A stretch of 64,000 nt of DNA from an uncultured Lentimicrobiaceae bacterium. GTDB lineage: Bacteria > Bacteroidota > Bacteroidia > Bacteroidales > UBA4417. Positions 25,452 to 47,141 of this stretch are shown in pieces (the stretch's first letter is position 1; each line of letters opens with the position of its first letter). Made by a program: the position numbers and the translations under genes. The notes under the pieces were generated by a model. The model saw only the letters and a program-made list of their open reading frames with translations, searched no databases and was not told the DNA's origin. The DNA lies in assembly GCA_964420555.1 (NCBI GenBank), contig CAYQTT010000014.1:23686-87685 (forward strand), written 5' to 3'.

Positions 25452-28400
25452 ATGAAGTTTTTCCAGAATTCCGTACTCAATAAACATCTGAAAGCACAGG
25501 ACACTCAAGCTATAAAAGCTGCCTACGCAAAGTTCACAGCTCATTTTCATGATGCCGGAATACAGGAAAACATACGTAACAGCAAGGAAGAGCAATACCA
25601 GGGGGAGTTTCTGATTGATTTGTTTGTTAATGTGCTGGGCTATACCAAGAACCCGGCACCAAATTTCAATATTACTACCGAATATAAAAATGTAAAGGAC
25701 AGTAAAAAGGCAGACGGCGCAATTATTCTTCCGCGGGAGCATGCTCCCACGGTAATTGCGGTTATTGAACTTAAAGGAACAGAAACCACTGATTTAAATC
25801 GAATTGAAACCCAGGCTTTCGGATATAAGAACAATCAGCCCGAATGCGTATATGTGATCACTTCCAATTTCGAAAAGCTGCGTTGCTATATCGATAACGC
25901 GATTGAGAATATTGAGTTCAACCTGTTTACGCTTACCGAAAAAGAGTTTGAATTGCTGTGGCTGTGCCTGGCATTTGTAAATATTGAGAAAAATCTAGCT
26001 AAGCGGATAAAAGATGAATCGGTAAGCCAGGAAGATGTTATTACCAAAAACTTGTACAACGATTATTCGCTGTTCAAAAGGGAACTGCACCAAAACCTGG
26101 TGGCGCTCAATCCGGATCATGATCCATTAACACTTTTCAAAAAATCGCAAAAGCTGTTGGACCGGTTCCTGTTTCTCTTTTTTGCCGAGGACAGGCAACT
26201 GTTGCCGCCTAATTCGGTGCGACTTATACTGGACGATTGGCGCGAGCTGCAAGTCAGAGACGTGGAAATAGCCTTGTATGCCAGGTTTAAAAAGTATTTT
26301 GAATACCTTAATACAGGCTTTAAAGGAAAACGCTACGATGTATTTGCATACAACGGCGGTTTGTTTAAAACCGATGAACTGCTGGATGGTTTGAAAATAG
26401 ATGATGAGTTGCTTTACAGACATGCAATGAAGCTTTCAACGTATGACTTTGTTAGCGAAGTGGATGTAAATATTCTGGGTCATATCTTCGAAAACTCTTT
26501 AAATGATCTCGACGAAATAAAAGCACAACTCGAAGGGCAGCAGGTGGATAAAGCCAAAAGCAAGCGCAAAAAGGAAGGCGTTTTTTATACGCCCAAGTAT
26601 ATTACGAAGTATATTGTCGATAATACGGTAGGGAAACTTTGCACTGAGAAAAAAGCCGAAATCGGGCTTATTGAAGAAGAGTTTATCACCGACCGGAAAC
26701 GCACCAATAAAACCAAGCAGCCTTTATTTGATAAGCTTACTGCCTACCGCAACTGGCTTTTGCAACTCACCATCTGCGACCCGGCCTGCGGATCAGGAGC
26801 GTTCCTGAACCAGGCGCTCGACTTCCTTATCAATGAACACCGCTATATTGATGAATTGCAGGCCAAGCTTTTCGGTGATGCGATGGTGCTGAGTGATTTT
26901 GAAAAGAACATTCTTGAAAATAACCTGTTTGGAGTTGATTTAAACGAGGAAAGCGTTGAGATAGCCAAGCTCTCCTTATGGTTGCGTACAGCGCAGCCTA
27001 ACCGCAAACTAAACGATTTAAATAACAATATCAAATGCGGCAACTCGCTGATTGATGATCCGGCTGTGGCTGGTGACAAGGCTTTTAACTGGCACAATGA
27101 GTTTCCTTCTGTTTTCGCTAAAGGTGGATTTGATGTGATGCTTGGGAATCCGCCGTATGTGCAGCTCCAAAGTATGGGCGAAATGAGTGATATACTCAAA
27201 AATTGCGGTTACGAAACTTTTGATAAGGGTGCCGACCTGTATTGCATTTTTACCGAACGTGGCTATCAATTACTCAAAAATGGTGGTGTGCAATCATTTA
27301 TTATGCCTAATAAATGGATGTTGGTTGCTTATGGTAAACCACTTCGCAAATTCTTGTCAAAAACAGGCTTGTGCCAGGTGTTAAACTTCGGTGACATACA
27401 ATTCTTTCAGGAAGCTACAACTTACGTCTGCATTTTCGTTACACAAAAAAACAAGCCATTCGATAACGTTAAAGTATTGTCACTTAATCAGAATACTTAT
27501 CATGGAGACTTTTTGACGGAGGCAGCAAGCAACATTTACAACTATAGAGCATCCAAATTTGGTGATGAAGAATGGAGTATACAACCTTACAAGGATGCTC
27601 AAAAGTTGGAGCAGATGAAATTAAGGGGCATTGAACTAAAAGATTTGCCAGTAAGCATTAACTATGGGATAAAAACAGGTTTTAACGACGCTTTTTTTAT
27701 TGATGAAAAAACGCGGAATAAGTTGATTGCTGCCGATGGCAGTAGTGCAGAACTTATTAAGCCAATGGTGCGTGGAAGAGATATTTCAGCATATGGAATA
27801 ACTGGTTTTGAATATTTGATCGGCACATTCCCTTCTCTAAAATTGGATATTGAACATTATCCGGTCATCAAAAAACACTTGCTTTCATTTGGATATGACC
27901 GACTGAACCAAACCGGCGAAAACGGTGCCCGCAAAAAGACCAATGGCAAGTGGTTTGAAACACAAGACAGTATCAACTATCATGAGGAATTCGCCAAACC
28001 TAAAATCATCTATCCAAATATGACTTCTGTTTTCCCATTTATACATGATGAAACGGGAATGCTAACAAATCAGAAATGTTTTATTCTAACAGCACATGAT
28101 GATTCTGTCTCATTATTGTTCTTAACAGCTATTTTCAATTCTTCATTGGCAAAGCTTTGGATATGGTATAATTGTCCCGAACTTCAAGGAGGTACTCGCG
28201 AAATCAGTAAAGTATATTTCGAGCATTTCCCCGTTCCACAAGCTAACGAAGAACAATCGGCTATGCTTGCACATTGCACAATTGAACGTACCCGATTAAC
28301 TGCCAGCCTGGAAATCCTTACCTCAAAATTCCAGCGTACTATCCAGCGTAAATTTAATCTGGAGGAATTGCCAGGCAAATTGCAAAACTGGTATTTACTT

Positions 28401-28613
28401 TCCTATACTGAGTTTATTACCGAACTGGCAAAAAAGAAAGTTAAACTATCTCTTTCGGAAGAAGCCGAATGGGAAGCTTACTTTTTACAGGAAGCAAAAA
28501 AAGCACTTGAGTTTAAATCTGATATCGATAAAACTGATAAGGAAATTGACAGGATGGTATATGACTTGTATGGGTTGACGGAGGAGGAGATAGGGATTGT
28601 GGAGGATAAATAA
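25452..28613 (+). CDS. Type IIG-like fused restriction endonuclease / N6-adenine methyltransferase
   Basis: N-terminal ADG...VIELK nuclease, DPACGSGAFL and NPPY MTase motifs, TaqI-C-like target recognition region. -7 box TATATTTG at 25393-25400. Confidence 0.9.
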   Translation: MKFFQNSVLNKHLKAQDTQAIKAAYAKFTAHFHDAGIQENIRNSKEEQYQGEFLIDLFVNVLGYTKNPAPNFNITTEYKNVKDSKKADGAIILPREHAPTVIAVIELKGTETTDLNRIETQAFGYKNNQPECVYVITSNFEKLRCYIDNAIENIEFNLFTLTEKEFELLWLCLAFVNIEKNLAKRIKDESVSQEDVITKNLYNDYSLFKRELHQNLVALNPDHDPLTLFKKSQKLLDRFLFLFFAEDRQLLPPNSVRLILDDWRELQVRDVEIALYARFKKYFEYLNTGFKGKRYDVFAYNGGLFKTDELLDGLKIDDELLYRHAMKLSTYDFVSEVDVNILGHIFENSLNDLDEIKAQLEGQQVDKAKSKRKKEGVFYTPKYITKYIVDNTVGKLCTEKKAEIGLIEEEFITDRKRTNKTKQPLFDKLTAYRNWLLQLTICDPACGSGAFLNQALDFLINEHRYIDELQAKLFGDAMVLSDFEKNILENNLFGVDLNEESVEIAKLSLWLRTAQPNRKLNDLNNNIKCGNSLIDDPAVAGDKAFNWHNEFPSVFAKGGFDVMLGNPPYVQLQSMGEMSDILKNCGYETFDKGADLYCIFTERGYQLLKNGGVQSFIMPNKWMLVAYGKPLRKFLSKTGLCQVLNFGDIQFFQEATTYVCIFVTQKNKPFDNVKVLSLNQNTYHGDFLTEAASNIYNYRASKFGDEEWSIQPYKDAQKLEQMKLRGIELKDLPVSINYGIKTGFNDAFFIDEKTRNKLIAADGSSAELIKPMVRGRDISAYGITGFEYLIGTFPSLKLDIEHYPVIKKHLLSFGYDRLNQTGENGARKKTNGKWFETQDSINYHEEFAKPKIIYPNMTSVFPFIHDETGMLTNQKCFILTAHDDSVSLLFLTAIFNSSLAKLWIWYNCPELQGGTREISKVYFEHFPVPQANEEQSAMLAHCTIERTRLTASLEILTSKFQRTIQRKFNLEELPGKLQNWYLLSYTEFITELAKKKVKLSLSEEAEWEAYFLQEAKKALEFKSDIDKTDKEIDRMVYDLYGLTEEEIGIVEDK

Positions 28614-28815
28614 TTGAGCTTTTAAAATGCGATACAAACATGCTTGTAAATATTTATAAACTATTTGCCATACCTGCTTTTATTTCATTAATATTGTAGT
28701 GTTCAAGCGATTAGAGTATTGTTAATTTGTAGATGTTTGAACTATCATAAGCTCTTTGGATTTAGGCTTTTTACTCGTCTTATACCTGCATAGGCAAATC
28801 AATAAATCTGGTACA

Positions 28816-29454
28816 ATGGAATTTTCTGATTTTACAATTAGGTTAATAATAATCTTAATTCCTGGAGCAATCGCAACGCTAATTATTGAATCAATAACAA
28901 TTCATAAAAGTTGGTCGCACCTTAGATTCACTGTCAGTTCAATAATTTTAGGTGGTACATCATTCGGTATTTTACAGCTTTTGTATTGGGGATTCCAACT
29001 TTATCAAAGTAGATGCATTGATATTAAATTTGAAAATTTGCAGACCTGGAAAAGCATCTTCAAGAATGAAAATGCGTTGAATCCAATTGAAATAATTCTA
29101 AGCGTACTTATATCTATCGCTCTAAGCTATTGCGTTTCATACATAATACAACATAAGATTCTCTTCAAGATTGCTAAAAGATTTAATGTATCTAGAAAAT
29201 ATGGAGATGATAGTCTCTATTCACATTACTTGAATGCCGATGAGGTCGATTGGGTTTATGTTAGGGATAAAACCAACGGAATGACATACTTAGGACAAGT
29301 TGATTCTTGGTCGGAAGATGATTCAAATAAGGAATTGTTACTCAGAAATGTCACTGTATTTAAGTATGAAAACAGCGACGAGCTCTATAAAATAAAACAA
29401 ATTTATCTCAAATTTCATGAGAGAGATATTATAATCGAATTACCTGAATACTAA
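28816..29454 (+). CDS. DUF6338-like membrane protein
   Basis: LIPG in TM1, three to four TM helices, C-terminal WVYVRD...YLG...WS beta domain; ATG at 28816. Confidence 0.6.
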   Translation: MEFSDFTIRLIIILIPGAIATLIIESITIHKSWSHLRFTVSSIILGGTSFGILQLLYWGFQLYQSRCIDIKFENLQTWKSIFKNENALNPIEIILSVLISIALSYCVSYIIQHKILFKIAKRFNVSRKYGDDSLYSHYLNADEVDWVYVRDKTNGMTYLGQVDSWSEDDSNKELLLRNVTVFKYENSDELYKIKQIYLKFHERDIIIELPEY

Positions 29455-29665: not shown

Positions 29666-29696
29666 CCGGCTCAGGCAAATCTTTTGCTTGAGCCGG
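29666..29696 (+). terminator. Stem-loop after the polyproline ORF
   Basis: CCGGCTCAGGCAAA-TCT-TTTGCTTGAGCCGG; no U-tract, so function is uncertain. Confidence 0.5.
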
Positions 29697-29783
29697 ATTA
29701 TTATCAGTATCCCTGGATGCAAAATCTGTTATCCCGAGACTTTTCTAAGACAAATAATATAAATTTTAAAAACTCATAACGAC

Positions 29784-30149
29784 ATGCAAAACGATTCAGT
29801 TTATGCTTATCTTCAGGGTTCCAATTATGAAATATTCATGCACAGAGCCTTCAGAACATCCAATCGTTCCAAGCCTGGCATGGATGGATCAACAATGAAA
29901 AATCTAATTGATGCTGAAAATGGCGAATCATGGGTTAGACACCTTGGCTCATTTGAGAAACAACTAACTCAAATAAAGTTCTATATGAATAAAGCATTAG
30001 ATAAATATTTGGACATGAAACTGCCGGTTGAAAATCTTGTAGCTGTAAGCTTAATGAAATTGAGATTAGATCAAGCTAATTCTTCAGCTGTAATAATCAA
30101 TATAATTGATGAAACAATTGAATTAACGCAGATAGTAAAAAATTATTGA
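29784..30149 (+). CDS. Hypothetical helical protein
   Basis: 121-aa ORF with ATG start in an AT-rich context; no motif recognised. Confidence 0.55.
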   Translation: MQNDSVYAYLQGSNYEIFMHRAFRTSNRSKPGMDGSTMKNLIDAENGESWVRHLGSFEKQLTQIKFYMNKALDKYLDMKLPVENLVAVSLMKLRLDQANSSAVIINIIDETIELTQIVKNY

Positions 30150-30214
30150 TGCTACTTAAATAGGTCTTTCCCTTGTGCCGGAAATCCTGTTTGGGAATTT
30201 TACTTTGAGCGAAA

Positions 30215-31426
30215 ATGATATTTATGAATACAGTTAAAATTGGAGATACGTTTGAGAAAAAATCACATGATGTGATTGTAAAGGCTATAGAGAATGGTGA
30301 ATTGGGTATCTCTGAATCAGCATCAAGAGTATTTCAGAAAAAGGGTTATTATTCTCGTGACAGAGAGAAAGCTATAATATTTGATTTGTCAATTGAAGTA
30401 TGGCCTACAAATGCAGAAAGGTATACATTGCTGTATTTAATTGAATGTAAAAGTTCAAACTCAAAGAAAGTACCTGTTGATGATATAGAAGAGTTTTATT
30501 CCAAAATTATCCAAGTTTCCGGGGTCAATGTTAAAGGAGTCTTGATTTCTGACAATTCATTTCAGGAAGGAGTTGTGACTTTTGCAAAAAACAGAGGCAT
30601 CATGCTAATTGAAGTTAGCAAAATAGGAGAACATAATATTATCCTACACAGAACCAATCGGGGTATTGATGATATAAAAGACAAGGATATTGATTCAATT
30701 TTTGAAAAATTTATAAAAAGGGCTTTTGGGCCCCAAAAAATAGAAGGATTACAAAAACTATCATCAGATCAAATTGAAAATAAGGCAAATATTTTACATA
30801 GCGAATATTCAAGAAGCCGAAAACCAATTGTAATAGATGAGTTTATTGAATTTGTAACTCAAAAATATGGACTCAAGATTGATTTAATATGTGATCTGGA
30901 GACAATAAACGGGAAAAAGATTTTGGGATATTACTCAGTTAAGGAAAATACAATCTTTCTGGACCAATCACTTTTACTTACGAATCAAACAGCATTTGTA
31001 CTAGGTCATGAATTAGGCCATTTCTTTTTACATAAAGAATTGACTGTAAATCAGGAATTGTATAATGATTTTGAAGATTCAGAATATGATTTCTTTGCAG
31101 ACAAGCATATACTTAAAAACGACAAAAACTGGATCGAGTGGCAAGCAAATCGATTTGCGATCTCTTTGTTTTTACCTTCAGATTTGTTCCTTTATCATTT
31201 ATGTGACTACAGACAAAGTATCGGAATTAGTAGATACTTTCATATTTACTTGGATAACCAAAGGATTAATCAAGATGATTACAGGAAAACCGTTGATCAT
31301 CTGGCATACCTTTTTGGAATAAGTAAAACAGTCGTCAAGTATAGGATTGACGAATTAAAGATAATTACGCATGCAGAATCCAAGAATGATATTGGAAGTC
31401 ATATCAGAAGATTTCTGTTAGAATAG
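30215..31426 (+). CDS. Restriction-endonuclease-like domain fused to ImmA/IrrE metallopeptidase
   Basis: N-terminal FDLSIE...LIECKS and VPVDDIEEF (Mrr-like); C-terminal HELGH (HExxH) and EWQANRFA. Confidence 0.8.
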   Translation: MIFMNTVKIGDTFEKKSHDVIVKAIENGELGISESASRVFQKKGYYSRDREKAIIFDLSIEVWPTNAERYTLLYLIECKSSNSKKVPVDDIEEFYSKIIQVSGVNVKGVLISDNSFQEGVVTFAKNRGIMLIEVSKIGEHNIILHRTNRGIDDIKDKDIDSIFEKFIKRAFGPQKIEGLQKLSSDQIENKANILHSEYSRSRKPIVIDEFIEFVTQKYGLKIDLICDLETINGKKILGYYSVKENTIFLDQSLLLTNQTAFVLGHELGHFFLHKELTVNQELYNDFEDSEYDFFADKHILKNDKNWIEWQANRFAISLFLPSDLFLYHLCDYRQSIGISRYFHIYLDNQRINQDDYRKTVDHLAYLFGISKTVVKYRIDELKIITHAESKNDIGSHIRRFLLE

Positions 31427-31483
31427 ATAGAATAATTCGATTTAATAATTTTAGGGATTCTTCTTTGATTCTTACAATACTAA

Positions 31484-31921
31484 TTACAATAATTGAATTA
31501 CCTGACTTTCTATATTAACCTCTCTGAATTCATCTTTCCACTCAAATTTGAGTTCAATTTTGTCCGGAAAATTATCAACAAGTGCAATTGTAATTTCAAT
31601 GGACTGTTGCGGCCTGAGATCAATAGGACAAGGATTATTCATTACTTCATACAATTCATTTTCAGGGATAGTAACATTTACTGACCTGGCAATAGATTTG
31701 CCTGTGTTACAAATAATTATTCCATTAAGACCATCTCTTTTTTTTAAAACTTTCGCTTCCAGAATTGCACGAAGCGATTCAATTTTCTCTTTCTCAACTT
31801 TTTCAATCTGATATGCATTGATAAGCTTTTGCTGTTTTTTAATCTTCCTATCATGATTAAAATAGGTAAAGGCGGATAAAGATAATGCCAGAATTGAAAT
31901 CACTATTCCTGCTATTTCCAT
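31484..31921 (-). CDS. Hypothetical protein with N-terminal TM helix, coiled coil and beta domain
   Basis: IAGIVISILALSLSAFTYF TM segment, then a K/E-rich helix and a beta-rich C-terminus. Confidence 0.65.
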   Translation of the reverse strand: MEIAGIVISILALSLSAFTYFNHDRKIKKQQKLINAYQIEKVEKEKIESLRAILEAKVLKKRDGLNGIIICNTGKSIARSVNVTIPENELYEVMNNPCPIDLRPQQSIEITIALVDNFPDKIELKFEWKDEFREVNIESQVIQLL

Positions 31922-31971
31922 TTTAACGAGGTTATTAAATGACTATTTTTAATTTATAAGTATTTTAAATT

Positions 31972-32907
31972 TTAGTCTATTTGTGTTTGCAGATCTTTAG
32001 GCAAAACAGGAAAAGATAAATCGAAATTTTCCAGATCTGAAAGAAAAATAGTGAGTAAACGCTTTGCGTCAGCCAAATCTGTCCTTTCTGGACGATTTAA
32101 ATGATTTTGGAGATCACTGTATTTATTTTTGACCTGGATAGATAACTGAGGGATCTGTAATTTCTTTGATTTTATATACAGAAATTTTAAAATTAATAAT
32201 CCTAAACATGTGATATTGAAATTTTTAAAGTGAATAGTTGAGTCGTAGACTAATGTAGATGCAATACCAATGCATTGATTGCCAATTTCAATCAGTTGTT
32301 CATTGTTTTTCTGATCATTACTACCAGGGAAGAATTTTGTTGTTAACGAAAAAATGGTTTGTGCCATTTTTGTAGGTAGTCCACTACGTGTTTCATAAGA
32401 AACTAATGAGAGAAAAGAAAATACTTCAAATGCAATTCGTGAATTATTGAATTCGGAGAATTTATTTAATTTTTGAATAATGTAATTTCGATCCATTAGA
32501 ATACACTCATAGTATTCTTGCTTAATTCTGGTTATCTCCATTAAAACAAGAGCTGATGTGGCAGCTAAAATTAAATCTTCTGAAGTGAGATTTGCTATGG
32601 GATTATAAAGCTTTTTTAGTGAATTATTTCTATCATTTTGAATAACTGCGTAATGATGTTCTCGAAATTTGATAATTGCTTTTGGAGTAAGCTTTTTGCG
32701 AAGACTTCCTGTTACTGTTGCTTCGTTATGACAATCAAAACATAATAGGGCTAGATTTTCAAATTCATTATTTGAATTATTTCCGTCAATATGATGCATA
32801 TGGTCGCCACGCTTTTGGTCAACGCAGCAGAGCCTATTTGATTGAAAAAGCACTTCAGCTTCAATGTCTGCAGGAATTTTTATTCTTTTCGTTTTTTGAA
32901 TACTCAT
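31972..32907 (-). CDS. HNH endonuclease domain protein with helical C-terminal region
   Basis: CCVD...HMHHIDGNNSNNEFENLALLCFDCHNE; probable start at ATG 32907. Confidence 0.8.
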   Translation of the reverse strand: MSIQKTKRIKIPADIEAEVLFQSNRLCCVDQKRGDHMHHIDGNNSNNEFENLALLCFDCHNEATVTGSLRKKLTPKAIIKFREHHYAVIQNDRNNSLKKLYNPIANLTSEDLILAATSALVLMEITRIKQEYYECILMDRNYIIQKLNKFSEFNNSRIAFEVFSFLSLVSYETRSGLPTKMAQTIFSLTTKFFPGSNDQKNNEQLIEIGNQCIGIASTLVYDSTIHFKNFNITCLGLLILKFLYIKSKKLQIPQLSIQVKNKYSDLQNHLNRPERTDLADAKRLLTIFLSDLENFDLSFPVLPKDLQTQID

Positions 32908-33068
32908 ATAATTTTGGTTATTATTTTGCATTAGCTTAATTAATTCTGTTTGACTGACATATATTATTTATAATTATAGCTAGTTTTATAATCGAATTTG
33001 CAAACTACATTTCTAAACAATTTACTAAGGATTATCAATTCATAAGTATAACAGGTTTTGATTAATCA

Positions 33069-36000
33069 TTAATCCATCCATCCCTTAAAATCTCTTTTCA
33101 TTTCATCTTGCATTTCCTTTTTTGACCATTCAATTTTTCGTTCCCAAATTTTTATGTGTTCGGCATAGTCAAGAGGATTAGGTAATGTACTTATCATTTC
33201 GATGATGGATTTCAAAAAGTTAATTTCTTCTTCAATTTTTGGGACCCGGCTACCATGTGAAATCCCGCTTTCTTCTAACCAAAGGTGATCAATAAATTCT
33301 ACATCCTTATTCAGTAGTAGAAACTCTTTTAGAAAACGTAAAATTTGATTTTTGAACCTATATGTAACTACATTTAAAATAATATGGATATGTTGCTCTG
33401 ATGAATAATTTTTGCGAATGAATTGACTGATGTAATCAAATACTTTTTCCAAATCAGTTCCACCGAATTTTAACCCTTTAAATAAAACATTTGCTTGATG
33501 CTCCCAACTGGAATAAATTGGAGCTTTTTTAATTATTATTTCTAATGCTTTATCTAGTATGACTACATATTCCGGTAAGTGCCAAACAAACGAAAGATTT
33601 AACTTGTCGAATTTAAATTCGAGAAAACTTATTTCTTTTGTAGTTTCAAGTAAATATTCGATTAAAAAATTATGATCTACTGAAGATATTGCCTCCATTT
33701 CATTCCCATTATGATCATAGTAGCCATCCCTTTTTCGTTGTAAATAATAAACCTGTTTGAGCAAACCAATATTGTCAACAAAGTGGTAAATGCACTTTTT
33801 GCAAATTTCATGGTCAAATGAAATATCTGAATTCTCAATTTTCGATAAGAGAATCTCAGTAATATAGGTTAAAATATTTTTATGACTTTCTGCTGAAGGT
33901 GGCAAAGAAGACTTTAAGTTATTAAACTGCTTGTCAAATTTCAAGATAGTTTCAGGATTATACATATAAAATCTTCCACTAACTGAAAAAATGAAACCAA
34001 TATACTCTTGTAAAAAGAATTCATCGATGTAATCCGGATCTATAGCATCAAAAAATGTTTGCTTCCAAAATTGCTTTTGTTTATATTCAAATCTATTAAG
34101 ATGTAGGTATAGCTCCTTTAGATTAACTAATTTTTGGCGGATCGGATAAAAGATAATACTTCCGTAATTTAAATCAAATGAATATTTGCCTAGCATCATC
34201 AGTTCAAGCGATCTAAAGTAAAATTTAGACTCGGTTTCAGCAATTATATGAAACAAGTAGTTCAAACTAGTTTCTATCCAATATGAATCATGTGTTTTAG
34301 CAGCCGCTTTATAAATTAGATCTAATTGGCCAAAAGTTCCCTCAATAAAGCTAAAATCTTTGCCAGAAATGTAATTTTCAATTTCGGATTTTCGTTTCTG
34401 CTCCTGTTCATCATATGTAAGTTTTTCATCATCAAATTCTGAACTGAAAATTTTTGCAATGAGCATGGAATCAGATTTCAAAAACAGAGTCCAATCATTC
34501 AATAGTTGAATGTTATGCTCTTTCAATGTTTCGACGTAGGCAAATACTAATTTACAATGGGAGAAATTTTCAGGATCAAGATATTTAAGTATAAAACCAG
34601 TAATCAATATTTGTTCTTCTTCATAAACACTTGAATCTATGCTCCCTGAAGTCCAGGCATATTTATGAATGGCTTCAAGAACTTTATCTTCGTTTTCATT
34701 GAACAGAGTTATCAGTCTCGATAAAATCTTTTTCCTTAATTCCATTAAAGAATGAGTTTTAATCAAAACAAAATTGTAAATTATCATCTGGCCATTGCCT
34801 TTACTTTCTGTTTGATGAAAATCCCATGCAAGTAAAGAAGGTGCAATTGAAAGAAATAATTGGTCTGAAATTGTTTTTTCTCTATCAGTGAAATCATTGC
34901 TGTCAAGTATGTCAATCAGGATAGATTGACGTGGATAAGCAAATCTATAATCAAAGCGGTGAAAAGTTAAATTTTCTTTTAAATGTTTTAATGTTTCAGG
35001 TATTCTTGAGGGCTGACGAAACATCAATTTAAGTCCTAACCCGATTGCATCTTTTGTGTAAGGAGTATTATGATTCCAAAAATTTAAAAGTAATTTGAAA
35101 TATTCTGGAGCCCAGACAAAGTCGTTTACCTCATATGTATACTTAATGTCTAGAAGTTCGGTATTCTCTTTAATCAAGTTGTTTATCCAATTTTTAACAA
35201 ATAATAGTGTATCTACTTCCTTATAAAACCAGAATATTTCAAAAAATTTGTATAGGCCGTTTGTATTTACGTTTAATTTATTTTGAACTTCAGCAATCAA
35301 ACTTGTTATTCGATCTTTTAACTCTTCGTACCCAAAAGTATTTATCAAATCAATGAGTGTTTTATTGATTTTTGTATCATATTTTTCAATAAATGATACA
35401 AGCCAATCAGAATAATTGATAGATGCAGAATTTTCATCGATAAAAGTCTTATAAAATGCATAAGTTGCCAGAACCTGGTCCGACATTTTTGCAGCCTCTT
35501 TATAAAACACATCAACTAATTCAGCTTTCTCTAACTCGATAAAAGTTTCCCAAAGGTCATTCCAATTTACCTTAAAATGGATCTTCAACATCTCGTTAAC
35601 TTCTTCATTACTTCTGTCTAATACACCAAAAAATGAAAGCAATCCAAGGGCTCTGAGGTTGTCTGGCTTTTCTAAGAAGGAAATATCTGTTTTTACTTTC
35701 TGAAAATATTGGTCATATAGTAAAAAGACATTTTTGAGAATACTTATATCATCGTTTTGAAGAATGGAAGAAGTTGCCATCAAAGCGATACGACTATTCC
35801 CTTTAGATAAGGAAACAATTCTTTCCATAACTAATTGATCCAAAGATATGTTATCAGGTAATGATTTATTTATTATTTCAATTAGTTGTTTATCTTCGAA
35901 GGGCTTTATAATAATTTCATTATAAATAGCATTGAATAAGAATTTATCAAGATCTTTTCGGACGTAATCTCTAACCGTAATTATTATTTTGGTTGAGTTT

Positions 36001-36863
36001 TTATCTCTGCTATTAACAAACTGCAATAAATAATCTAAATTCGGTAAAGACTTGTTTGCGTCATCAAAAAAAATGATGTACTTATTGGTAGGCATAATAA
36101 AGGTTGTCAAATCTTCCCATAATGGAACCGGGCTACTCGCAATAACTCTAGGCTCATAATTATATTCGCTTTCAAAAATATGAGCCAAATGAACTGCAAG
36201 TTTTGATTTGCCTACACCTTGATTCCCAGTAATAATTAGGATGTCGTTTAACTGTAGAAAATCTCTAGCTTGATTAATTTCATCTTCACGTCCAGCAAAA
36301 GGATTGGTTAATGAAGGCTGAAGACCTTTTTCAGTTGTTTTAAGAAAATCAGGTAATGTATACAGTGTCCCTTTTGTTGTTTTTACACCTGGGATATATT
36401 TGTCTGCTAATCCAGGATAATAAACCAATCGAAAAGGTATTTCCTGTATTGAATAAATGACTAATTCAGTTTGAGGATTAAATTGCTTGATTTTTTCCTT
36501 TAACTCATTATGTTCAGAAGGATTAATTTTTTCAGTGAAAGCTAAAATTATTTTTGATATTTTAGAATTGTCAATTCTTGTGCTCTTTATATCAAAGCAA
36601 TGCTCAACATCATTTTTAAGTTTTTTAAAGAATGTTTCACCTTTGCTAAGTCTTTCTTGAGTTGTACATTCACAGAATATGTAATTATCTCCATCCTCAA
36701 AAAAACTATCGGGACGTCCTTTGCTTGTTTTGTTTTTTCCAATTACTGAACCAGGTGAACCGATAAAGCGATAGCCTTCCAGGTGCAGAAGGTGATTCAT
36801 CAATTTTTGAAATGTTGCTTGATCAATACTGGATAAGTGCTCTTCAATTATTGTAGTAATCAT
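33069..36863 (-). CDS. NLR-like STAND ATPase with N-terminal PD-(D/E)xK-type nuclease (Avs-like)
   Basis: GRPDSFF...IFCECTT nuclease-like motif; Walker A GNQGVGKS; Walker B IIFFDD; IIITVR sensor; GNSRIA; ~800-aa helical C-terminus. Confidence 0.75.
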   Translation of the reverse strand: MITTIIEEHLSSIDQATFQKLMNHLLHLEGYRFIGSPGSVIGKNKTSKGRPDSFFEDGDNYIFCECTTQERLSKGETFFKKLKNDVEHCFDIKSTRIDNSKISKIILAFTEKINPSEHNELKEKIKQFNPQTELVIYSIQEIPFRLVYYPGLADKYIPGVKTTKGTLYTLPDFLKTTEKGLQPSLTNPFAGREDEINQARDFLQLNDILIITGNQGVGKSKLAVHLAHIFESEYNYEPRVIASSPVPLWEDLTTFIMPTNKYIIFFDDANKSLPNLDYLLQFVNSRDKNSTKIIITVRDYVRKDLDKFLFNAIYNEIIIKPFEDKQLIEIINKSLPDNISLDQLVMERIVSLSKGNSRIALMATSSILQNDDISILKNVFLLYDQYFQKVKTDISFLEKPDNLRALGLLSFFGVLDRSNEEVNEMLKIHFKVNWNDLWETFIELEKAELVDVFYKEAAKMSDQVLATYAFYKTFIDENSASINYSDWLVSFIEKYDTKINKTLIDLINTFGYEELKDRITSLIAEVQNKLNVNTNGLYKFFEIFWFYKEVDTLLFVKNWINNLIKENTELLDIKYTYEVNDFVWAPEYFKLLLNFWNHNTPYTKDAIGLGLKLMFRQPSRIPETLKHLKENLTFHRFDYRFAYPRQSILIDILDSNDFTDREKTISDQLFLSIAPSLLAWDFHQTESKGNGQMIIYNFVLIKTHSLMELRKKILSRLITLFNENEDKVLEAIHKYAWTSGSIDSSVYEEEQILITGFILKYLDPENFSHCKLVFAYVETLKEHNIQLLNDWTLFLKSDSMLIAKIFSSEFDDEKLTYDEQEQKRKSEIENYISGKDFSFIEGTFGQLDLIYKAAAKTHDSYWIETSLNYLFHIIAETESKFYFRSLELMMLGKYSFDLNYGSIIFYPIRQKLVNLKELYLHLNRFEYKQKQFWKQTFFDAIDPDYIDEFFLQEYIGFIFSVSGRFYMYNPETILKFDKQFNNLKSSLPPSAESHKNILTYITEILLSKIENSDISFDHEICKKCIYHFVDNIGLLKQVYYLQRKRDGYYDHNGNEMEAISSVDHNFLIEYLLETTKEISFLEFKFDKLNLSFVWHLPEYVVILDKALEIIIKKAPIYSSWEHQANVLFKGLKFGGTDLEKVFDYISQFIRKNYSSEQHIHIILNVVTYRFKNQILRFLKEFLLLNKDVEFIDHLWLEESGISHGSRVPKIEEEINFLKSIIEMISTLPNPLDYAEHIKIWERKIEWSKKEMQDEMKRDFKGWMD

Positions 36864-36991
36864 CTAAACAGGATTTTGGAGAAAAGTGTTAGCATATTTT
36901 AACTTCAAATATATGTTGATTTTCTTCATTTTACTACTTGCTTTTAGATTAGTTTTAAACATCTTAATATAGCATTATTACAAAATACAGC

Positions 36992-37317
36992 TTATAAACT
37001 ATTTATAAATGTCTTTTTAACAACAGGGATTTTGAAAGTATATAGTTTCTTTAAATGTTTGATTAATTGCTCGTTTGTTAAAGATTTTTCAATATCGTCT
37101 AATACAAGAATTCAAGCTTCTTTATGCTCGTTAATGAAGTTGTAATTTAATTTGAATTTAATAAGTTCTTTTTACAGTTAAATGGGTCATTAATCTAATA
37201 TGGTGTTGAAAATTTCAATTTTTTTTTAAACAATACTTTAAGTCCATTTTTTGTTGAAAGATATTTATACACGATTGGATTCTCATGCCCGATCTGATTT
37301 ATATCAATAAAGTTCAT
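36992..37317 (-). pseudogene. Decayed DUF2971-like gene
   Basis: Manual translation MNFIDINQIGHENPIVYKYLSTKNGLKVLFKKKLKFSTPY*INDPFNC (TAG at 37195-37197), with further stops or shifts downstream. Confidence 0.55.
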
Positions 37318-37457
37318 CTTGCGACAATAAATTAAGAATTCCTGATGCTAAATGAAAGTGTAAAAATTATTCCAATACATTTTCGAAACTGAATTTAAAT
37401 TTTTAAATATAGACTTTAAAAATGACCTATAGAAACTGAAGTGCTCCATGCCTTTTA

Positions 37458-38246
37458 TCAAAGCTTTTCAAGAATCACAGCCCTGATCAATTTAAAAGCG
37501 GTATCCGGATTATACTCTGTATTAATCCTCAAGAGTCCCAGGATATCTTTACGGAATTCCAGATCGTTCATTTTGTTTTCCATATTGCTGATAAAGTCAT
37601 CACGCCGGATGGTTCGCCCTTCACTTTTCATGTATTCCTGATACGTTTTTATTATTAAGGCTATATCGGGATTGAGATTTGTGAGAGCATACCAAAGATC
37701 GAAGAGATCGCGGCCTTTGCGACGTTGATATAGTGCCCGGAGTTTTGTAGCCAGCAGTTCTTCAATTTTGTAAGTGCGGATATTGGCCTGCCCTGTAAAC
37801 CACGAATTGCTGATGTTCACTGGCATTTGATGATAACCCAGTACTGAAAAATGTTCACGGCAATTGATTTCAATTTTCAATTTCATTTTACGAACCGGTT
37901 CTGTTTCTGTGAGGTAGCGGTAATTCATTGTGGTCATGGAATCGCCCCTATCCACAGTGATTTTGCCATCAATGAAAGATAAAACTTTACGGAAGCGGGA
38001 AAGAACATCTCCAATCGGGGCCGGTGTTACCTGCACCAGGTCAATATCTTCGGAATACCTCACTTGTGGATGAAGCCATAATTTATGCAAAGCTGTTCCT
38101 CCGCGGAATGCAAGCTGTTCGGCCAGGAACTCGTCCTGATAGATAGCAATCAAAGCACGTTCGATAATAAGATCCTGTTCGACCTGTGCATCATCCGGCC
38201 ATTGGGCATTTTCCTTCCATTCGGTAATATAATTGCGTGGTATCAT
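37458..38246 (-). CDS. abiEii: AbiEii nucleotidyltransferase toxin
   Basis: QVEQDLII, AFRGGTALHK, RYSEDIDL, KLRALYQRRKGRDLFDL. Confidence 0.92.
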   Translation of the reverse strand: MIPRNYITEWKENAQWPDDAQVEQDLIIERALIAIYQDEFLAEQLAFRGGTALHKLWLHPQVRYSEDIDLVQVTPAPIGDVLSRFRKVLSFIDGKITVDRGDSMTTMNYRYLTETEPVRKMKLKIEINCREHFSVLGYHQMPVNISNSWFTGQANIRTYKIEELLATKLRALYQRRKGRDLFDLWYALTNLNPDIALIIKTYQEYMKSEGRTIRRDDFISNMENKMNDLEFRKDILGLLRINTEYNPDTAFKLIRAVILEKL

Positions 38247-39052
38247 ATGTCGCTTTCAACCTCCATATTTTTAATCAGTTTCCAGCGTTGGGAAACTTCC
38301 CCTTTTCGCTCTTTGCTTGTGGATAACGGAACCGGATGAATTTTTCGATCTGCTAACGCTTTTTCGACAGCGGCAGCCAGTTTTTCATTACCTAATTCAA
38401 TGTCCAGCAGATATCCTAGGCGCTGTATTGCAGCAGTAACCGGAAAACGTTTTGCAGTTTGTAACAAAACCGAAGGCTTCATTTCTTCAGCAAGCTCGCT
38501 AATAACGGCAGTTGCCCGATTGATAACCATCCAATTATTAAATAAAAGCAAATCAAGAGCGGTTAATTCCGGGGAAGAAACGTTAATATAACCGGCTTCG
38601 GTTTTTTTCTGGATGATATCGCTAACATCCCAGGAGTTTTTTACAAGGAAATTTATAGCAATCTTTCCAGTACTAATCTTACGCAATGCAGGTGGCCTGG
38701 TAATAATAAATGATTCCATAGGTTGCTGATGCGAAGATCCATGAAGAGCAGCCGCAGAAAGCAACCCTATATAATAAGGCTTTCCAAGCCATTTCATCAT
38801 CTGATCGATGAAGAAATACAAAGGGAGAATTCCCGAAGAAGCATACTCAGGCGGGATAACCACAAAGAAACCTTGCCGAACCTGTGCAATCTGGCCTTTT
38901 GATTTTAATCGGAAAAGGCTTTGGTTGATAGCATTTTCAGATATTGAGAATTTTGATCGCAGTTCATCCAGTGTGAAGGCATAGCGGCCTTTCCCTCTTA
39001 TTTTAAAGAGGTATTCCTGAATATTGGAAGCTGAAGCATGATCTATTTCCAT
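38243..39052 (-). CDS. abiEi: AbiEi antitoxin (type IV TA)
   Basis: wHTH start, YYIGLLSAAALHGSSHQ, VSSPELTALDL; 4-bp overlap with abiEii; probable start at 39052. Confidence 0.9.
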   Translation of the reverse strand: MEIDHASASNIQEYLFKIRGKGRYAFTLDELRSKFSISENAINQSLFRLKSKGQIAQVRQGFFVVIPPEYASSGILPLYFFIDQMMKWLGKPYYIGLLSAAALHGSSHQQPMESFIITRPPALRKISTGKIAINFLVKNSWDVSDIIQKKTEAGYINVSSPELTALDLLLFNNWMVINRATAVISELAEEMKPSVLLQTAKRFPVTAAIQRLGYLLDIELGNEKLAAAVEKALADRKIHPVPLSTSKERKGEVSQRWKLIKNMEVESDI

Positions 39053-39165
39053 ATTTGTGCGTAATTGCGTAATACTACGTTTTTCGTAATAATACGCAAA
39101 TGTAAACATTTTATTGTTGCGTTACTTAAAAGGATAAAATTAATGTACAAACCAGAGGTGATAAA

Positions 39166-39404
39166 CCAAATTATAAAACAGGGTAGGCAGGGTAGACACT
39201 TTTGGGCAAAAGGTTTTCGAAATTTCATAAAAAAGCTTCTGAATCAATAGAAAGATGGGCAAAAGCGAAGGAAAAATAATGAATTTTCTGCGCACTAATT
39301 TTTTCTTCTGTTTCGCTTGATGCAGTCTGGTTATAGAAAGAATTTTAAAAATAGTTATTTTTTTTAGTGAGAATTTGCCTACCCTGCCTACCCTGTACCT
39401 TACT
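39166..39404. repeat. Origin-like element copy 1 with 20-bp terminal inverted repeats
   Basis: CAGGGTAGGCAGGGTAGACA (39179-39198) and TGCCTACCCTGCCTACCCTG (39376-39395) around an AT-rich core. Confidence 0.85.
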
Positions 39405-40060: not shown

Positions 40061-40396
40061 ATGAATAATCCAAAATTTCAAGTTTTCAAAAGTAATGCAA
40101 ATGCTCAGTATTATTACAAATTACGAGCAACTAATGGTGAAGTAATTTTAAGTGGTGAAGGTTATACCACCAAGCAAAACTGCCTAAATGGAATTACATC
40201 AGTAAAAGCCCATGCTCCTTATGACCAGTACTATGACAGGAAAGATGGTTATAATAATTACACCTTTAATCTTAAAGCTAGAAATAGTGAAATTATTGGT
40301 AGAAGTGAGAACTATACAACACGGGTGAATCGTGAAAATGGAATTGCTGCCGTAAAAAAGGATGCTCCTATTGCTCCAATTGAAGATTTAACTTAA
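40061..40396 (+). CDS. yegP: YegP/DUF1508 tandem-domain protein
   Basis: Two repeats of F.L.A.NxEII..SE.Y. Confidence 0.88.
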   Translation: MNNPKFQVFKSNANAQYYYKLRATNGEVILSGEGYTTKQNCLNGITSVKAHAPYDQYYDRKDGYNNYTFNLKARNSEIIGRSENYTTRVNRENGIAAVKKDAPIAPIEDLT

Positions 40397-40455
40397 TCTG
40401 TTAAACTACAAGGATTAAGTAAAGCAGTCATTTCTTTTTATAAAAGAGTAATACA

Positions 40456-40694
40456 CCAAATTATAAGCAGGGTAGGCAGGGTAGGCACTTTGGGGCAAAA
40501 GATTTTCGAATTTTACAAAAAAGCTTCTGAATCGCTAGAGGGACGGACAAAAGCGAAGAAAAAAATAAGATTTTTTTTTGTAGACTATTATTAACATCTG
40601 TATCGCCTGAAGCTGTAGGATTGTAGAAGGAATTTTCAAAAAAGTTATTTTTTTAGTGAGAATTTGCCTACCCTGCCTACCCTCTACCTCACTT
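40456..40694. repeat. Origin-like element copy 2, immediately downstream of the virE-like gene
   Basis: AGGGTAGGCAGGGTAGGCA (40469-40487) and its perfect inverse at 40665-40683; alignable with copy 1 over its whole length. Confidence 0.85.
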
Positions 40695-40709: not shown

Positions 40710-42959
40710 TTAAGAAAGTGAGTCGTTGAATGGCAAATCTACCTGTATTTCAATAGGTTGGGCTGGTGAATTAGCTTCAGTTTTAGAGGCATTTCCCGAA
40801 AATTCTTCAATCATAGAGCGATTCCTAGATTCGACCTCTTCCCACTGAAGTTCATGGAGAGCATAAAGCAATTTGCCATTAGATTTAAACCGATGATAGT
40901 TGTTTTTGATAAGAGCTTTTCCAAGTTTGTTAACTGAACTATCGGAAACATTAATTTTAGCTTTATCAGCCAGTTTTGCCAGAATTTGTGATGCTGTCAG
41001 GAATACGTTTGCTTGCTCTTTTGTGCAAGACTCAAACCAGGTCAACAATAATTCTTCTTCAGGGGACCGAAGCTGGTACTGCTCATTGTTCTGGTTAATG
41101 GCTCCAATTTCATCCCGGTTGAACCAAAAGCGGAAACCGGACTTAAAAAGATGTAAAGCCTGGGAGTAAACATCGTTAAGAGATACTTTGTGGTCGTATT
41201 GAATATCAGTAACTTCGAAGGAAAGGAATCGACGGGAACCGGTTGTGTCGTTGAGAAATTGGGCAGTGTTTACACTACCGGCGAAGCTGGCACAACGTGG
41301 AAGTGTTTCGTTGTTATGTCCGTATGCCCGACGGATCCGGATATGAGTTTTAGTGATCAGCTCTTTTAAGCTGCCAATCTCACTTCGGTTCAGGTTTTCA
41401 AGCTCATCGAGATTTATTAACATGCATTCGGAAAGATGGATCAAGGTATCCTTGTTGTTGGGATTAATGGTTCCTGAGAAAAGGTACTGCTTTAATTCTA
41501 TTGGAATAAGATTTTCCATCCAGGTTGTTTTACCAACACCTTGCTTGCCGGAAAAGACGATTACTGTTTGGTTGATGGTGTGTTCGTCAAGGACACAACC
41601 AACCATTGCAACTAACCATTTTTTGAAGCAGGTGTGCCAGAGTTCCTGATGGGTGGTTGTGATGGTATCGGCAAGAAGGGCAATGTGATCGGTTTGTTCA
41701 TCCCAGAAAGGAAGGCTTTCAAAGTATGTTGTGAAGGGATTAAAGAGTTCGCAAAAGTCAGAATACAATAAATTCCGTAATCCGGACATATTGGTTTTGA
41801 CTTTGTTTTTAAGCAGTTCACGAAGCATTGAGTTTTCGATATAGTCGTTCACCTGGTGCCAGACTTTTTTAGTTATGAAACGATATTCAAGACGGCCAGT
41901 TATGGTATTGTTGCGGAAACGGTATTTGAGGAGAAGGAAGTTTTCTACTCGGTCGATGGCGGGGATACGTTTTTTAGGTGCTTCGTCTTCGGTATTTTCC
42001 TCTGTGGCAGCTGGAATAACCTCACCTCCCGGCCTCCTCTCCTGGAGGAGAGGAGATGACTCTGCTTCACTTTTTATGCCATGTTCAGATCTATTTTTAT
42101 AGGCACTATTTACAGCCGCCATAACTTCTTTCTCATCGAAGTTATAATCGGCCAGGATAAAGCCAAGAGCTGCAGCGAACTGCACTCCACTTCTATTCAG
42201 ATTGCAAGCCAGCTGATGAACAAAGTTATTGCGGCTGCCTGTGGTGAAAGATTCATTGTGTTCAGTGAGTTTGATGGAGTCGTGGTATATTTTCAGGTAA
42301 TCTTGCTGTGGAATTACTGTAGGCTTGACTTCACCATCTGGCTCTATTTTCCCGTCAAGCGGGGACTGGTTCTGAGTGTTAGGGCGTGAATCTTCGTTTG
42401 AACTCTTACTTGAAAGAGTATTTGTGAAAACTTGTGCATTAGGATTATGGTAAAGATCCGGATCAACGGACATGAAACAGAGCCGGGTGTAATCCTTACC
42501 AGATTTGTCGATAGGCAAACCGGTGAGTGATTCGTAGTAAGACTGAACAAGCAAAAAAGTATTCTTGTGCGTTGATGGTGTAGCCTGTGTTTGAACAAAA
42601 ACCTTGAGGCCGTTTCCTGAAGGGCTGATGAAAACTGCCATGGTAAATTGATCGTCCATGACCGATTCACGGCATTTTTTCAATTGTTCCGGACTGAGTT
42701 TGTCGAAGTCCAGTACAATGATGCCGGAATACTTTTTAAGAGTTTCCTGGTTGCGGCCACCTTCGAATTGACCGGAAGGTGTGAAAGCCAGTAATCCCTT
42801 CTTGGCTTTCTCGTACGATTCAAGCTTTTGCTCCTGCAGACACTTCCGGATATAAGTGACTGGTCCGCGGTACTTGCCGCTTTTGATATCAGTGAGTATA
42901 TCGACGAAGGGCTTATTCTCGGTTATGTTGGTAAAGTTTTGGAATATGGAGAGGTTCAT
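40710..42959 (-). CDS. VirE-family primase-helicase (BT4734-like N-terminus, SF3-like P-loop domain)
   Basis: FTPSGQF, SGIIVLDFD, FISPSGNGLK (primase-polymerase-like); GKQGVGKTT, INLDEL, DTTGSRRF. Confidence 0.88.
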   Translation of the reverse strand: MNLSIFQNFTNITENKPFVDILTDIKSGKYRGPVTYIRKCLQEQKLESYEKAKKGLLAFTPSGQFEGGRNQETLKKYSGIIVLDFDKLSPEQLKKCRESVMDDQFTMAVFISPSGNGLKVFVQTQATPSTHKNTFLLVQSYYESLTGLPIDKSGKDYTRLCFMSVDPDLYHNPNAQVFTNTLSSKSSNEDSRPNTQNQSPLDGKIEPDGEVKPTVIPQQDYLKIYHDSIKLTEHNESFTTGSRNNFVHQLACNLNRSGVQFAAALGFILADYNFDEKEVMAAVNSAYKNRSEHGIKSEAESSPLLQERRPGGEVIPAATEENTEDEAPKKRIPAIDRVENFLLLKYRFRNNTITGRLEYRFITKKVWHQVNDYIENSMLRELLKNKVKTNMSGLRNLLYSDFCELFNPFTTYFESLPFWDEQTDHIALLADTITTTHQELWHTCFKKWLVAMVGCVLDEHTINQTVIVFSGKQGVGKTTWMENLIPIELKQYLFSGTINPNNKDTLIHLSECMLINLDELENLNRSEIGSLKELITKTHIRIRRAYGHNNETLPRCASFAGSVNTAQFLNDTTGSRRFLSFEVTDIQYDHKVSLNDVYSQALHLFKSGFRFWFNRDEIGAINQNNEQYQLRSPEEELLLTWFESCTKEQANVFLTASQILAKLADKAKINVSDSSVNKLGKALIKNNYHRFKSNGKLLYALHELQWEEVESRNRSMIEEFSGNASKTEANSPAQPIEIQVDLPFNDSLS

Positions 42960-43117: not shown

Positions 43118-43447
43118 TCATCTGGCAGCAGGCTTCTTCGAAATCCTGCTATTCAGACGAATTGTACTTTTACTTGCAAAGGCATTGTTATAATGCTTTT
43201 TGAGAAACATTTCAATATCAGCCTGGGTGTAATAAATCTTGGCTCCTACCTGAGAAAATGAGATTTTACCTTCATCGCGCCAACGTTGTGCAGTGCGGGA
43301 GGCGATTTTCATTGTAGAGATGAAATCATCATTGTCGATAATCAGGTCCCTGATGCTTTTGGATGATGGTTGCAGGCGAAGATTGATTTCTTCAATTTTG
43401 TCCATGAGTTTCTGGTACTGTTCTGGTGTCATGAAAATTGCTTCCAT
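43118..43447 (-). CDS. Excisionase-like helix-turn-helix protein
   Basis: IDNDDF...IASRTAQRWRDEGKISFSQVGAKIYY; probable start at 43447. Confidence 0.85.
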   Translation of the reverse strand: MEAIFMTPEQYQKLMDKIEEINLRLQPSSKSIRDLIIDNDDFISTMKIASRTAQRWRDEGKISFSQVGAKIYYTQADIEMFLKKHYNNAFASKSTIRLNSRISKKPAAR

Positions 43448-43495
43448 AGCTTTTTTTGTTAAAAGATTAGGAAGCAAAAGAAAATAAGAAAAAAA

Positions 43496-46259: not shown

Positions 46260-46308
46260 AGCTATGTTTTTTATTGATTGTATAAAGGTACAAAATAATG
46301 TAATACTG

Positions 46309-46602
46309 GGGAAACATAGTGGGAAACATTTTTGTAAAACTCTGAATTTTTGTGGCTTCAGTTGGCTTAGCCAAAATTCTATGTATTTGATATACAATTA
46401 CATAAAAGACTATAACGGTAAAAGACAGACATAATTGTGATCCTATCGGGGTCACCGGTTCATCAGTTAACCACTTATCAGTTAAATACTTATAAGTGGT
46501 TTTTCTTTTTTACATTCAAATTTACATCTACTTATATAGTATTTTAACGGTATATAACTGCTTTTATTGATTGAACAATGAAAACATGCCAATTGTTTCC
46601 CA
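46309..46602. other. att region: arm-type repeats, symmetric core and hairpin
   Basis: GGGAAACAT at 46309 and 46321; core GTGATC-CTATCGG-GGTCAC at 46437-46455; hairpin AACCACTTAT/ATAAGTGGTT at 46469-46501; inverted TGTTTCCCA at 46594-46602. Confidence 0.6.
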
Positions 46603-46703: not shown

Positions 46704-47141
46704 ATGGAACACGACAAAAGTGACAACAAGTCAATTCAAAGTACATTTTCTCAGACTTACTTCCACAGCACAAAAGCTGATCTGAAACTTGGCGACTTTA
46801 TTGAAGTTGGTCTAAACTCAAATTACGGACAAAGAAAAAATGCTAAATATATTTACCTGACAGCAACACTGGATGCCGCTATTTGGGGTGCTGAACTTGC
46901 TTTAGGGAAAGGTGATGAAAGAATTTATTTAGTAGAACCAACAGGAACTATTGAGGACGACCCAAATTTAACAGACAAAAAATTCCCGGGTAATCCAACA
47001 AAATCCTATCGTTCGAAATTTCCCTTTAAAGTTGTTGGAGAAGTTACCATTTGGCAAGGGCACGCACCAGAACTTGTAAAGGCCATGAATGACGGACTTG
47101 AAAAGCTTAGGGAACAAGGGATTGAAGCAATTGAAGACTAA
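46704..47141 (+). CDS. arr: NAD+-rifampin ADP-ribosyltransferase
   Basis: YFHSTKADL, IYLTATLDAAIWGAELA, IYLVEPTG.IEDDPNLTDKKFPGNPTKSYRS. Confidence 0.93.
   Translation: MEHDKSDNKSIQSTFSQTYFHSTKADLKLGDFIEVGLNSNYGQRKNAKYIYLTATLDAAIWGAELALGKGDERIYLVEPTGTIEDDPNLTDKKFPGNPTKSYRSKFPFKVVGEVTIWQGHAPELVKAMNDGLEKLREQGIEAIED

Follow-up and report, generated by a model that had tools for sequence, protein, structure and literature searches.

What does a peptidase of a repressor-cleaving family do when it is joined to a nuclease and no repressor gene lies beside it? The characterized M78 peptidases, ImmA, IrrE, and CapP, all cleave helix-turn-helix (HTH) repressors (10.64898/2026.05.16.725639). We analyzed an open reading frame (ORF) of 403 amino acids (aa), at positions 30215 to 31426 of a 64,000-nucleotide stretch ("the window") of contig CAYQTT010000014.1 from an uncultured Lentimicrobiaceae bacterium, that departs from this pattern. 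We are nearly certain of its anatomy, an intact Mrr-type nuclease joined to an intact M78 peptidase, and the gene very probably works without a dedicated partner gene. A role in conflict or defense is rather likely. Taken as a whole, the reading that we prefer is a tentative one: a solo mobile conflict gene with a nuclease effector and an M78 domain that serves as a latent proteolytic switch. Proteolytic gating of the nuclease by the M78 domain, considered by itself, is possible but doubtful.

Domain organization of the fusion protein

The ORF is uninterrupted and includes the residues MIF ahead of the start that is typical of the family. Translation probably starts at the ATG at 30224 (M4), because the aligned homologs all start at ORF residue 4 (MNTVKIGD) and DNA homology with an 86%-identical relative (L001) sets in at 30223. 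The genome contains a single copy of the gene, whose parts are as follows.

30215..31426, + strand: whole fusion ORF, 403 aa; likely start at 30224
30224..30649, + strand: Mrr_cat-type PD-(D/E)xK nuclease domain, residues 4-145 (from Mrr_cat in relatives, Foldseek, and invariant residues)
30254-30256, + strand: E14, predicted catalytic residue (conservation in relatives)
30383-30385, + strand: D57, predicted catalytic residue (conservation in relatives)
30443-30451, + strand: E77-C-K79, predicted catalytic residues (conservation in relatives)
30650..30745, + strand: inter-domain linker, residues 146-177 (low confidence at 147-156, one helix at 159-171)
30746..31369, + strand: M78 (ImmA/IrrE) zinc-peptidase domain, residues 178-385, with terminal HTH-like helices at residues ~350-380 (from profiles and fold)
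31007..31021, + strand: HELGH, H265-E266-x-x-H269, two predicted zinc ligands and the predicted catalytic Glu (conserved in 247/247 relatives)
31076..31078, + strand: D288, in the long loop that connects HExxH to the predicted third zinc ligand (95% conserved)
31136..31138, + strand: E308 in WIEWQAN, predicted third zinc ligand (247/247; aligns with IEAQAD of CapP)

The N-terminal half is assigned as a nuclease because 19 of 36 aligned family members match Mrr_cat (PF04471, best E value 4.3e-9) and because the fold agrees, although the isolated N-terminal 175 aa of the window protein have no match in Pfam or NCBIfam (E ≤ 0.1). Foldseek searches with an AlphaFold2 model returned the PD-(D/E)xK proteins AF1548/1y88 (8e-4), MspJI, the Avs3 nuclease, Card1, and NucS. 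Conservation was scored over 247 full-length relatives that are 28 to 97% identical to the window protein. Residues E14, D57, E61, E77, K79, and K107 are conserved in 244 to 247 of them; D57, E77, and K79 are kept in 246 to 247, and E14 is present in all 242 sequences that are ungapped at this position.

The C-terminal half matches Pfam Peptidase_M78 (PF06114) over residues 242-377 with an E value of 1.4e-10 and 41.5 bits (gathering cutoff, 22), and the same profile is matched by 36 of 36 relatives. The PADLOC model of capP (1.3e-12, the best PADLOC match), the PHROG 87 metallo-protease (6.6e-18), and several PADLOC RmrA models (down to 1.8e-6) were also hit, the RmrA models via the M78 part only. 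Among solved structures, the best profile match is CapP (7t5t, 9.7e-5), with a weak match to IrrE (3dte), while Foldseek places this half with the XRE-M78 regulators 6cz6 and 6d2s of Mycobacterium tuberculosis. H265, E266, H269, H273, E308, Q310, and A311 are conserved in 247 of 247 relatives. For the AlphaFold2 model, which was computed from the family alignment, the mean predicted local distance difference test score (pLDDT) is 83.5 and the predicted template modeling score is 0.62; pLDDT falls below 50 at linker residues 147-156. The linker is also the least conserved part of the family (18.5% identity) and varies in length from 25 to 82 aa.

This pairing had been proposed in a sequence-only reading of the window, which described an Mrr-like nuclease fused to an ImmA/IrrE peptidase and singled out the HExxH and ExK motifs. 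Domain and fold searches bear it out: the PF06114 match, the Mrr_cat matches of the family, and the PD-(D/E)xK fold of the N-terminal half agree, and both motifs are essentially invariant in the relatives.

The two halves diverge together. Their pairwise identities co-vary across the family (Pearson r = 0.84), with mean identities of 46% in the nuclease half and 36% in the peptidase half. Both active sites are invariant and the domains co-diverge, which argues that both enzymes are under selection and that the two domains evolve as one unit.

Distribution of the family

A search among 1.84 billion representatives clustered at 50% identity found 1566 at E ≤ 1e-3, 904 at E ≤ 1e-10, and 234 at E ≤ 1e-30; with few exceptions, the 150 top matches have both domains and a length of ~400-470 aa or are fragments of such proteins. 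Species-representative genomes yielded 104 stretches with a gene for a relative, from which 79 loci were retained. The family is mostly found in Bacteroidota, with scattered members in Calditrichota, Sulfurimonas, Gracilibacteria, Leptospiraceae, Hyphomicrobiales, Methylobacter, and Acinetobacter. The distribution is patchy also among nearer relatives of the window's genome: the gene is present in 4 of 37 genomes of the same genus and in 0 of 24 other families of the order. Public databases label its members only as "ImmA/IrrE family metallo-endopeptidase" or "DUF955."

Phage and plasmid collections contributed only four phage records, the best two of which are chromosomal sequence, and three plasmid records; one of the plasmid-borne genes adjoins a recombinase. 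A viral structure library gave single-domain matches only and no protein of the two-domain architecture. Records named "Acinetobacter phage MD-2021a" (133-139 kb; L199, CAKLQH020000007.1) encode a 431-aa homolog amid nrdAB, metE, and LysR/TetR regulators; in this gene content, they resemble bacterial contigs that were deposited as phage.

Two loci carry altered forms of the gene. At L132:3001-4298, the fusion is broken, by either a frameshift or a natural split, and its nuclease part (126 aa) and M78 part (307 aa) are encoded separately with a 4-bp overlap; in Flavivirga aquatica (L024) only a 294-aa C-terminal ORF is left.

Neighboring genes and the missing repressor

The neighborhoods were surveyed by uniform ORF calling and BLAST clustering of the four genes on either side in the 79 loci, together with a Pfam scan of 135 flanking genes. 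No neighbor family occurs in more than 6 of the 79 loci, and no methyltransferase is conserved beside the family. The sequence-only reading had noted that no XRE repressor gene is adjacent and had called for such a survey. Its observation holds in the window, where neither the genes flanking the fusion gene (Pfam, NCBIfam, and PHROG) encode an HTH protein nor the surrounding island contains an XRE-type gene, its only HTH protein being an HTH_17 excisionase-like one. It extends to the family, as XRE-type HTH domains were found in ~3 of the 135 immediate neighbors (HTH_26 in three; HTH_3, HTH_19, and HTH_31 in two each). On this survey, the lack of a cognate XRE repressor characterizes the family as a whole and is no accident of the window locus. 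Since the fusion is intact and a repressor is lacking family-wide, a one-component device, as had been suggested, would be the most economical reading.

Among the flanking genes are some for defense proteins (CoiA/PD-T7-4-like, DUF4238, type IV and type I restriction, PbeA, and AriA), and some family loci are flanked by plain housekeeping genes.

Two lineage-specific arrangements were seen. In a Flavobacterium/Mucilaginibacter subclade (L033, L037, L040, and L049), a gene for a ~550-570-aa protein family lies 1 to 12 bp downstream of the fusion gene, which may be a lineage-specific two-gene arrangement. Four of the surveyed flanking genes match CoiA_nuc/DUF6035/DUF7829 and one matches PADLOC PD-T7-4; these matches probably come from the four ~550-570-aa proteins. 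At L112:1991-3004, a gene for a 337-aa M78 peptidase (HEVAH ... EETLCNLAAAELLMP) overlaps the start of a full-length fusion gene (460 aa) by 4 bp, giving a tandem M78 pair.

Mobility of the fusion gene

The fusion gene has a GC content of ~31%, and the region from 30 to 37 kb is at 29 to 31%, compared with 35 to 43% in most of the window. A 98% relative (L003) shares positions 29762-31428 at 96.6% identity, with flanks that are 83 to 91% identical; it lacks window positions 31429-37456, so that AbiE directly adjoins the fusion gene there. The 86% relative L001 is homologous over 30223-31437 alone, that is, over the gene itself. These two DNA comparisons indicate that the fusion gene moves as a self-contained cassette.

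Stand-alone relatives of the two halves

Each half has relatives that occur by themselves. Stand-alone M78 proteins of the clade are 239 to 261 aa long and 30 to 36% identical, and they have no consistent neighbors. Stand-alone nucleases of ~200 aa, 43 to 51% identical over the whole N-terminal domain, are found in Vibrio cholerae, Shewanella, Lysobacter, and many metagenomic sequences. They form a sister group, match Mrr_cat, and are annotated as "restriction endonuclease."

In V. cholerae (L090:4075-5597) and Shewanella (L094:282-1807), a 309-aa gene lies upstream of, and overlaps by 4 bp, the gene for a 198-aa Mrr_cat nuclease (49 to 51% identity); the V. cholerae pair sits among cassette-type genes (DUF645, DUF3709, and ParE/Phd). 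The 309-aa protein contains HELSH (117-121) and FETEAD (165-170), motifs of a gluzincin or M78-like peptidase, and has no Pfam match. Alignment with hhalign places HELSH on the HELGH of the family with a probability of 3%, and a local M78 hidden Markov model gives an E value of ~0.02. The AlphaFold2 model of this protein was unusable (pLDDT 37.8), and a metagenome scan with it returned no match; a 342-aa neighbor in L101 carries HELSH/FETEAD-type motifs like those of the 309-aa protein. Judging by its motifs, the HExxH protein could form a split protease/nuclease pair with its nuclease, in a gene order that is the reverse of that in the fusion. We considered a split-gene ("Rosetta stone") argument for the fusion on this basis and retain it as no more than a lead: only Vibrio and Shewanella have the HExxH partner, and the partners of other stand-alone nucleases are unrelated.

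Possible modes of action

In the reading that we prefer, the fusion would be a horizontally mobile single-gene conflict module, most likely directed against phages or mobile elements. Its effector would be an Mrr-type PD-(D/E)xK DNA nuclease, tethered by a flexible and variable linker to an M78 peptidase from which both the usual XRE repressor substrate and the usual GAF sensor domain would have been lost. The M78 domain may act as a latent switch, with D288 in the place of the zinc-capping Cys of CapP. The peptidase would be opened by a signal of infection or by DNA, perhaps DNA that the nuclease domain has bound. It would then cleave either an invader protein or the fusion protein itself, in cis or between the subunits of an oligomer, and so license the cutting of DNA. 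The sequence-only reading had pictured a similar sensor-effector, in which single-stranded DNA (ssDNA) binding or self-cleavage releases the nuclease; the lack of a GAF domain and the poorly conserved linker speak mildly against these steps. A fully specified version, in which D288 caps the zinc, DNA engaged by the Mrr domain, a stand-in for the GAF domain, opens the M78 domain, the linker or a neighboring subunit is severed, and the freed nuclease destroys phage DNA, host DNA, or both, is unlikely to be right in every step.

The comparison with CapP, the regulator that works with CapH in CBASS (cyclic oligonucleotide-based antiphage signaling system) and other immune operons, gives this reading its detail. 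CapP and IrrE have a peptidase-HTH-GAF organization, bind ssDNA in the groove between peptidase and GAF domain, and cleave an HTH repressor; many, although not all, CapP proteins cap their zinc by a loop Cys that lies between HExxH and the Glu ligand, beside two acidic residues (10.64898/2026.05.16.725639). Like CapP (7t5t), the fusion has the M78 motif HExxH(xxxH), a distal Glu ligand, and an intervening regulatory loop with aligned acidic residues. It differs in lacking a CapH-like HTH substrate gene, a GAF domain, and the switch Cys, in having a loop of 32 to 46 aa instead of ~26, and in bearing an N-terminal nuclease domain that is absent from CapP. In the HMMER alignment to 7t5t, D288 (F-E-D-S-E-Y-D) falls on the switch Cys of CapP (F-Q-C-S-D-A-D), and acidic residues come next, as they do in the CapP loop; no Cys is conserved in the M78 half of the 247 relatives. 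This alignment suggests that D288 may be an aspartate-type latch in the M78 loop.

Other known systems share one half or the other. ImmA/ImmR (of ICEBs1 and phage phi105) and IrrE/DdrO (of Deinococcus) use the same peptidase family, PF06114, but are two-gene modules with an adjacent XRE repressor, which is absent across the fusion family, and have no nuclease; IrrE, unlike the fusion, has a GAF domain. The RmrA antitoxin of RosmerTA resembles the fusion in its size (~380-400 aa) and in the position of its M78 domain, but its N terminus is an HTH instead of a nuclease and it requires the toxin gene rmrT, whereas the fusion has no partner gene. Mrr and type IV enzymes, as well as the Mrr-like effector domains of Avs3, Lamassu, and Card1, share the PD-(D/E)xK pattern E...D...E-x-K, and these effector domains, like the fusion nuclease, are joined to a non-nuclease module in a single polypeptide. 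In contrast to them, the fusion has no winged-helix or SRA reader, STAND NTPase, or CARF sensor, and its sole other module is a protease. Its parts are unsurprising and its wiring is unusual, and the protease-nuclease pairing was not found described in the literature searched; Vassallo et al. name both Mrr nucleases and an ImmA/IrrE peptidase, but not in the same system.

Several observations weigh against our preferred reading. Across the family, nothing is conserved in the linker that could be a cleavage motif, and the M78 domain is followed by a tail of 0 to 53 aa (median, 18) and by no GAF domain. The equivalence of D288 and the CapP Cys is that of a gapped profile alignment only. The full-text literature contained no paper that we could find on a nuclease-M78 fusion. 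The stand-alone nucleases have no conserved partner, so that the nuclease may be tolerated ungated, which weakens the idea that it has to be caged by a protease. Finally, although the fusion gene of the window does lie among known defense genes (type IIG restriction-modification, AbiE, and an nSTAND3/HNH cluster), a family-wide enrichment of defense genes near the fusion was not shown: the 135 neighbors match 44 PADLOC families (E ≤ 1e-8), compared with 50 for 135 random genes drawn from 20 random 10-kb regions of the window's genome by the same ORF-calling pipeline, in what is a crude comparison that counts families and not members against a single-genome background that is itself rich in defense genes. 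The random regions (L179-L198) have matches to PADLOC QatA/QatB, bacterial gasdermin, PifA, and DpdF/BrxH-like helicases; on these matches, the window's genome seems rich in defense genes, which limits its value as a background.

The alternative that survives best, although we consider it improbable, is a constitutive type IV-like nuclease that spares host DNA by its own specificity, while the M78 domain independently hits invader proteins, e.g., anti-restriction proteins or phage repressors, or has a Lit-like action on a host factor. It would account for the existence of ~200-aa nucleases (43 to 51% identity) without a conserved partner. Moreover, Mrr_cat is the catalytic domain of Mrr-type enzymes, and no methyltransferase is conserved nearby, as expected for type IV enzymes. 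Yet Pfam, NCBIfam, and fold searches detected only Mrr_cat and M78 and no DNA-reader domain (winged helix, SRA, etc.). The co-divergence of the domains and the invariance of their active sites do not favor this alternative, as they fit an integrated mechanism equally well as two separate activities.

Very unlikely is a trans-acting, ImmA-like anti-repressor whose XRE repressor is encoded elsewhere (in a prophage, an integrative and conjugative element, or a defense operon), the nuclease domain serving as a sensor of DNA damage or DNA ends. The cleavage of HTH repressors by characterized M78 relatives (10.64898/2026.05.16.725639) speaks for it, as do the closeness of CapP among solved profile relatives (9.7e-5) and the fold matches to 6cz6 and 6d2s. 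However, ~132 of the 135 flanking genes encode no XRE-type HTH and the island contains none, the neighborhoods are unrelated between genomes and include housekeeping flanks, which is hard to square with a dedicated regulon, and a pure sensor would not need invariant nuclease catalytic residues. A selfish addiction or toxin cassette, or an anti-defense factor (a miniature "polyvalent protein") that serves its carrier element, is very unlikely as well: the cassette-like mobility, the integrase/primase island in the window, the occasional plasmid copy beside a recombinase, and the related stand-alone nuclease that sits beside toxin-antitoxin genes within the V. cholerae gene cassettes would suit it, but the family is very rare in phage and plasmid collections (four and three records), has no conserved antitoxin-like partner, and lacks a viral protein with its two-domain architecture.

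Hundreds of sequence clusters in several phyla keep an intact M78 domain whose repressor and GAF domain are replaced by a covalently attached, intact nuclease. This would imply that the domains are wired differently: the protease would control the nuclease, or the protein would be a restriction factor with two weapons. If the fusion is protective, its 1.2-kb gene would add a compact one-gene system to the defense catalogue and extend the mechanisms of ImmA-like proteases. If the fully specified version is true, the fusion would found a new class of one-protein devices for abortive infection or restriction, and its M78 peptidase would be the first to act physiologically on itself instead of on a repressor.

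Surroundings of the gene in the window

The fusion gene is preceded by a small ORF, which is separated from the gene before it by a terminator-like hairpin.

29666..29696, + strand: terminator-like hairpin (14-bp stem) at the end of the preceding gene, ahead of the pair formed by the 121-aa ORF and the fusion gene
29784..30149, + strand: 121-aa orphan ORF, 65 bp upstream of the fusion gene

The 121-aa ORF has no Pfam, NCBIfam, PADLOC, or PHROG match and no homologs in 400 other genomes of the phylum, and it is co-inherited with the fusion gene only in the 98% relative L003. Judged by this distribution, it is not part of the family's architecture. Upstream of the fusion gene, matches to sigma-70 promoters were not above those in shuffled sequence, and no exact Bacteroidota -7 motif was found.

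Both genes lie in an island that is bounded by an integrase; no att-like direct repeats bounding it were found.

~25.0 to 46.4 kb: integrase-bounded island
25452-28613, + strand: type IIG restriction-modification enzyme (PADLOC REase_MTase_IIG, E = 0)
28756-29454, + strand: unknown ORF
31484-36863, - strand: 145-aa membrane protein, 319-aa HNH protein, and 1264-aa nSTAND3 NTPase with a restriction-endonuclease-like N terminus
37458-39109, - strand: AbiEii/AbiEi
40061-40396, + strand: DUF1508 gene
40710-42959, - strand: VapE-like primase
43118-43477, - strand: HTH_17 excisionase-like protein
44991-46397, - strand: tyrosine integrase

The three minus-strand genes for the membrane protein, the HNH protein, and the nSTAND3 NTPase (within 31429-37456) are missing as a block from L003, which suggests that they move as one cassette; this fits a three-gene system that is independent of the fusion gene. 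A direct repeat of ~250 bp (39158-39404 and 40448-40693; 75 to 89% identity, 1290 bp apart) brackets the DUF1508 gene, and L003 has a single copy that matches both copies of the window. The DUF1508 region looks like a 1.3-kb cassette insertion between duplicated intergenic repeats. Just outside the integrase of the island, positions 46704-47141 carry a gene for an Arr-ms-type rifampin ADP-ribosyltransferase (Pfam PF12120, 3.8e-47).

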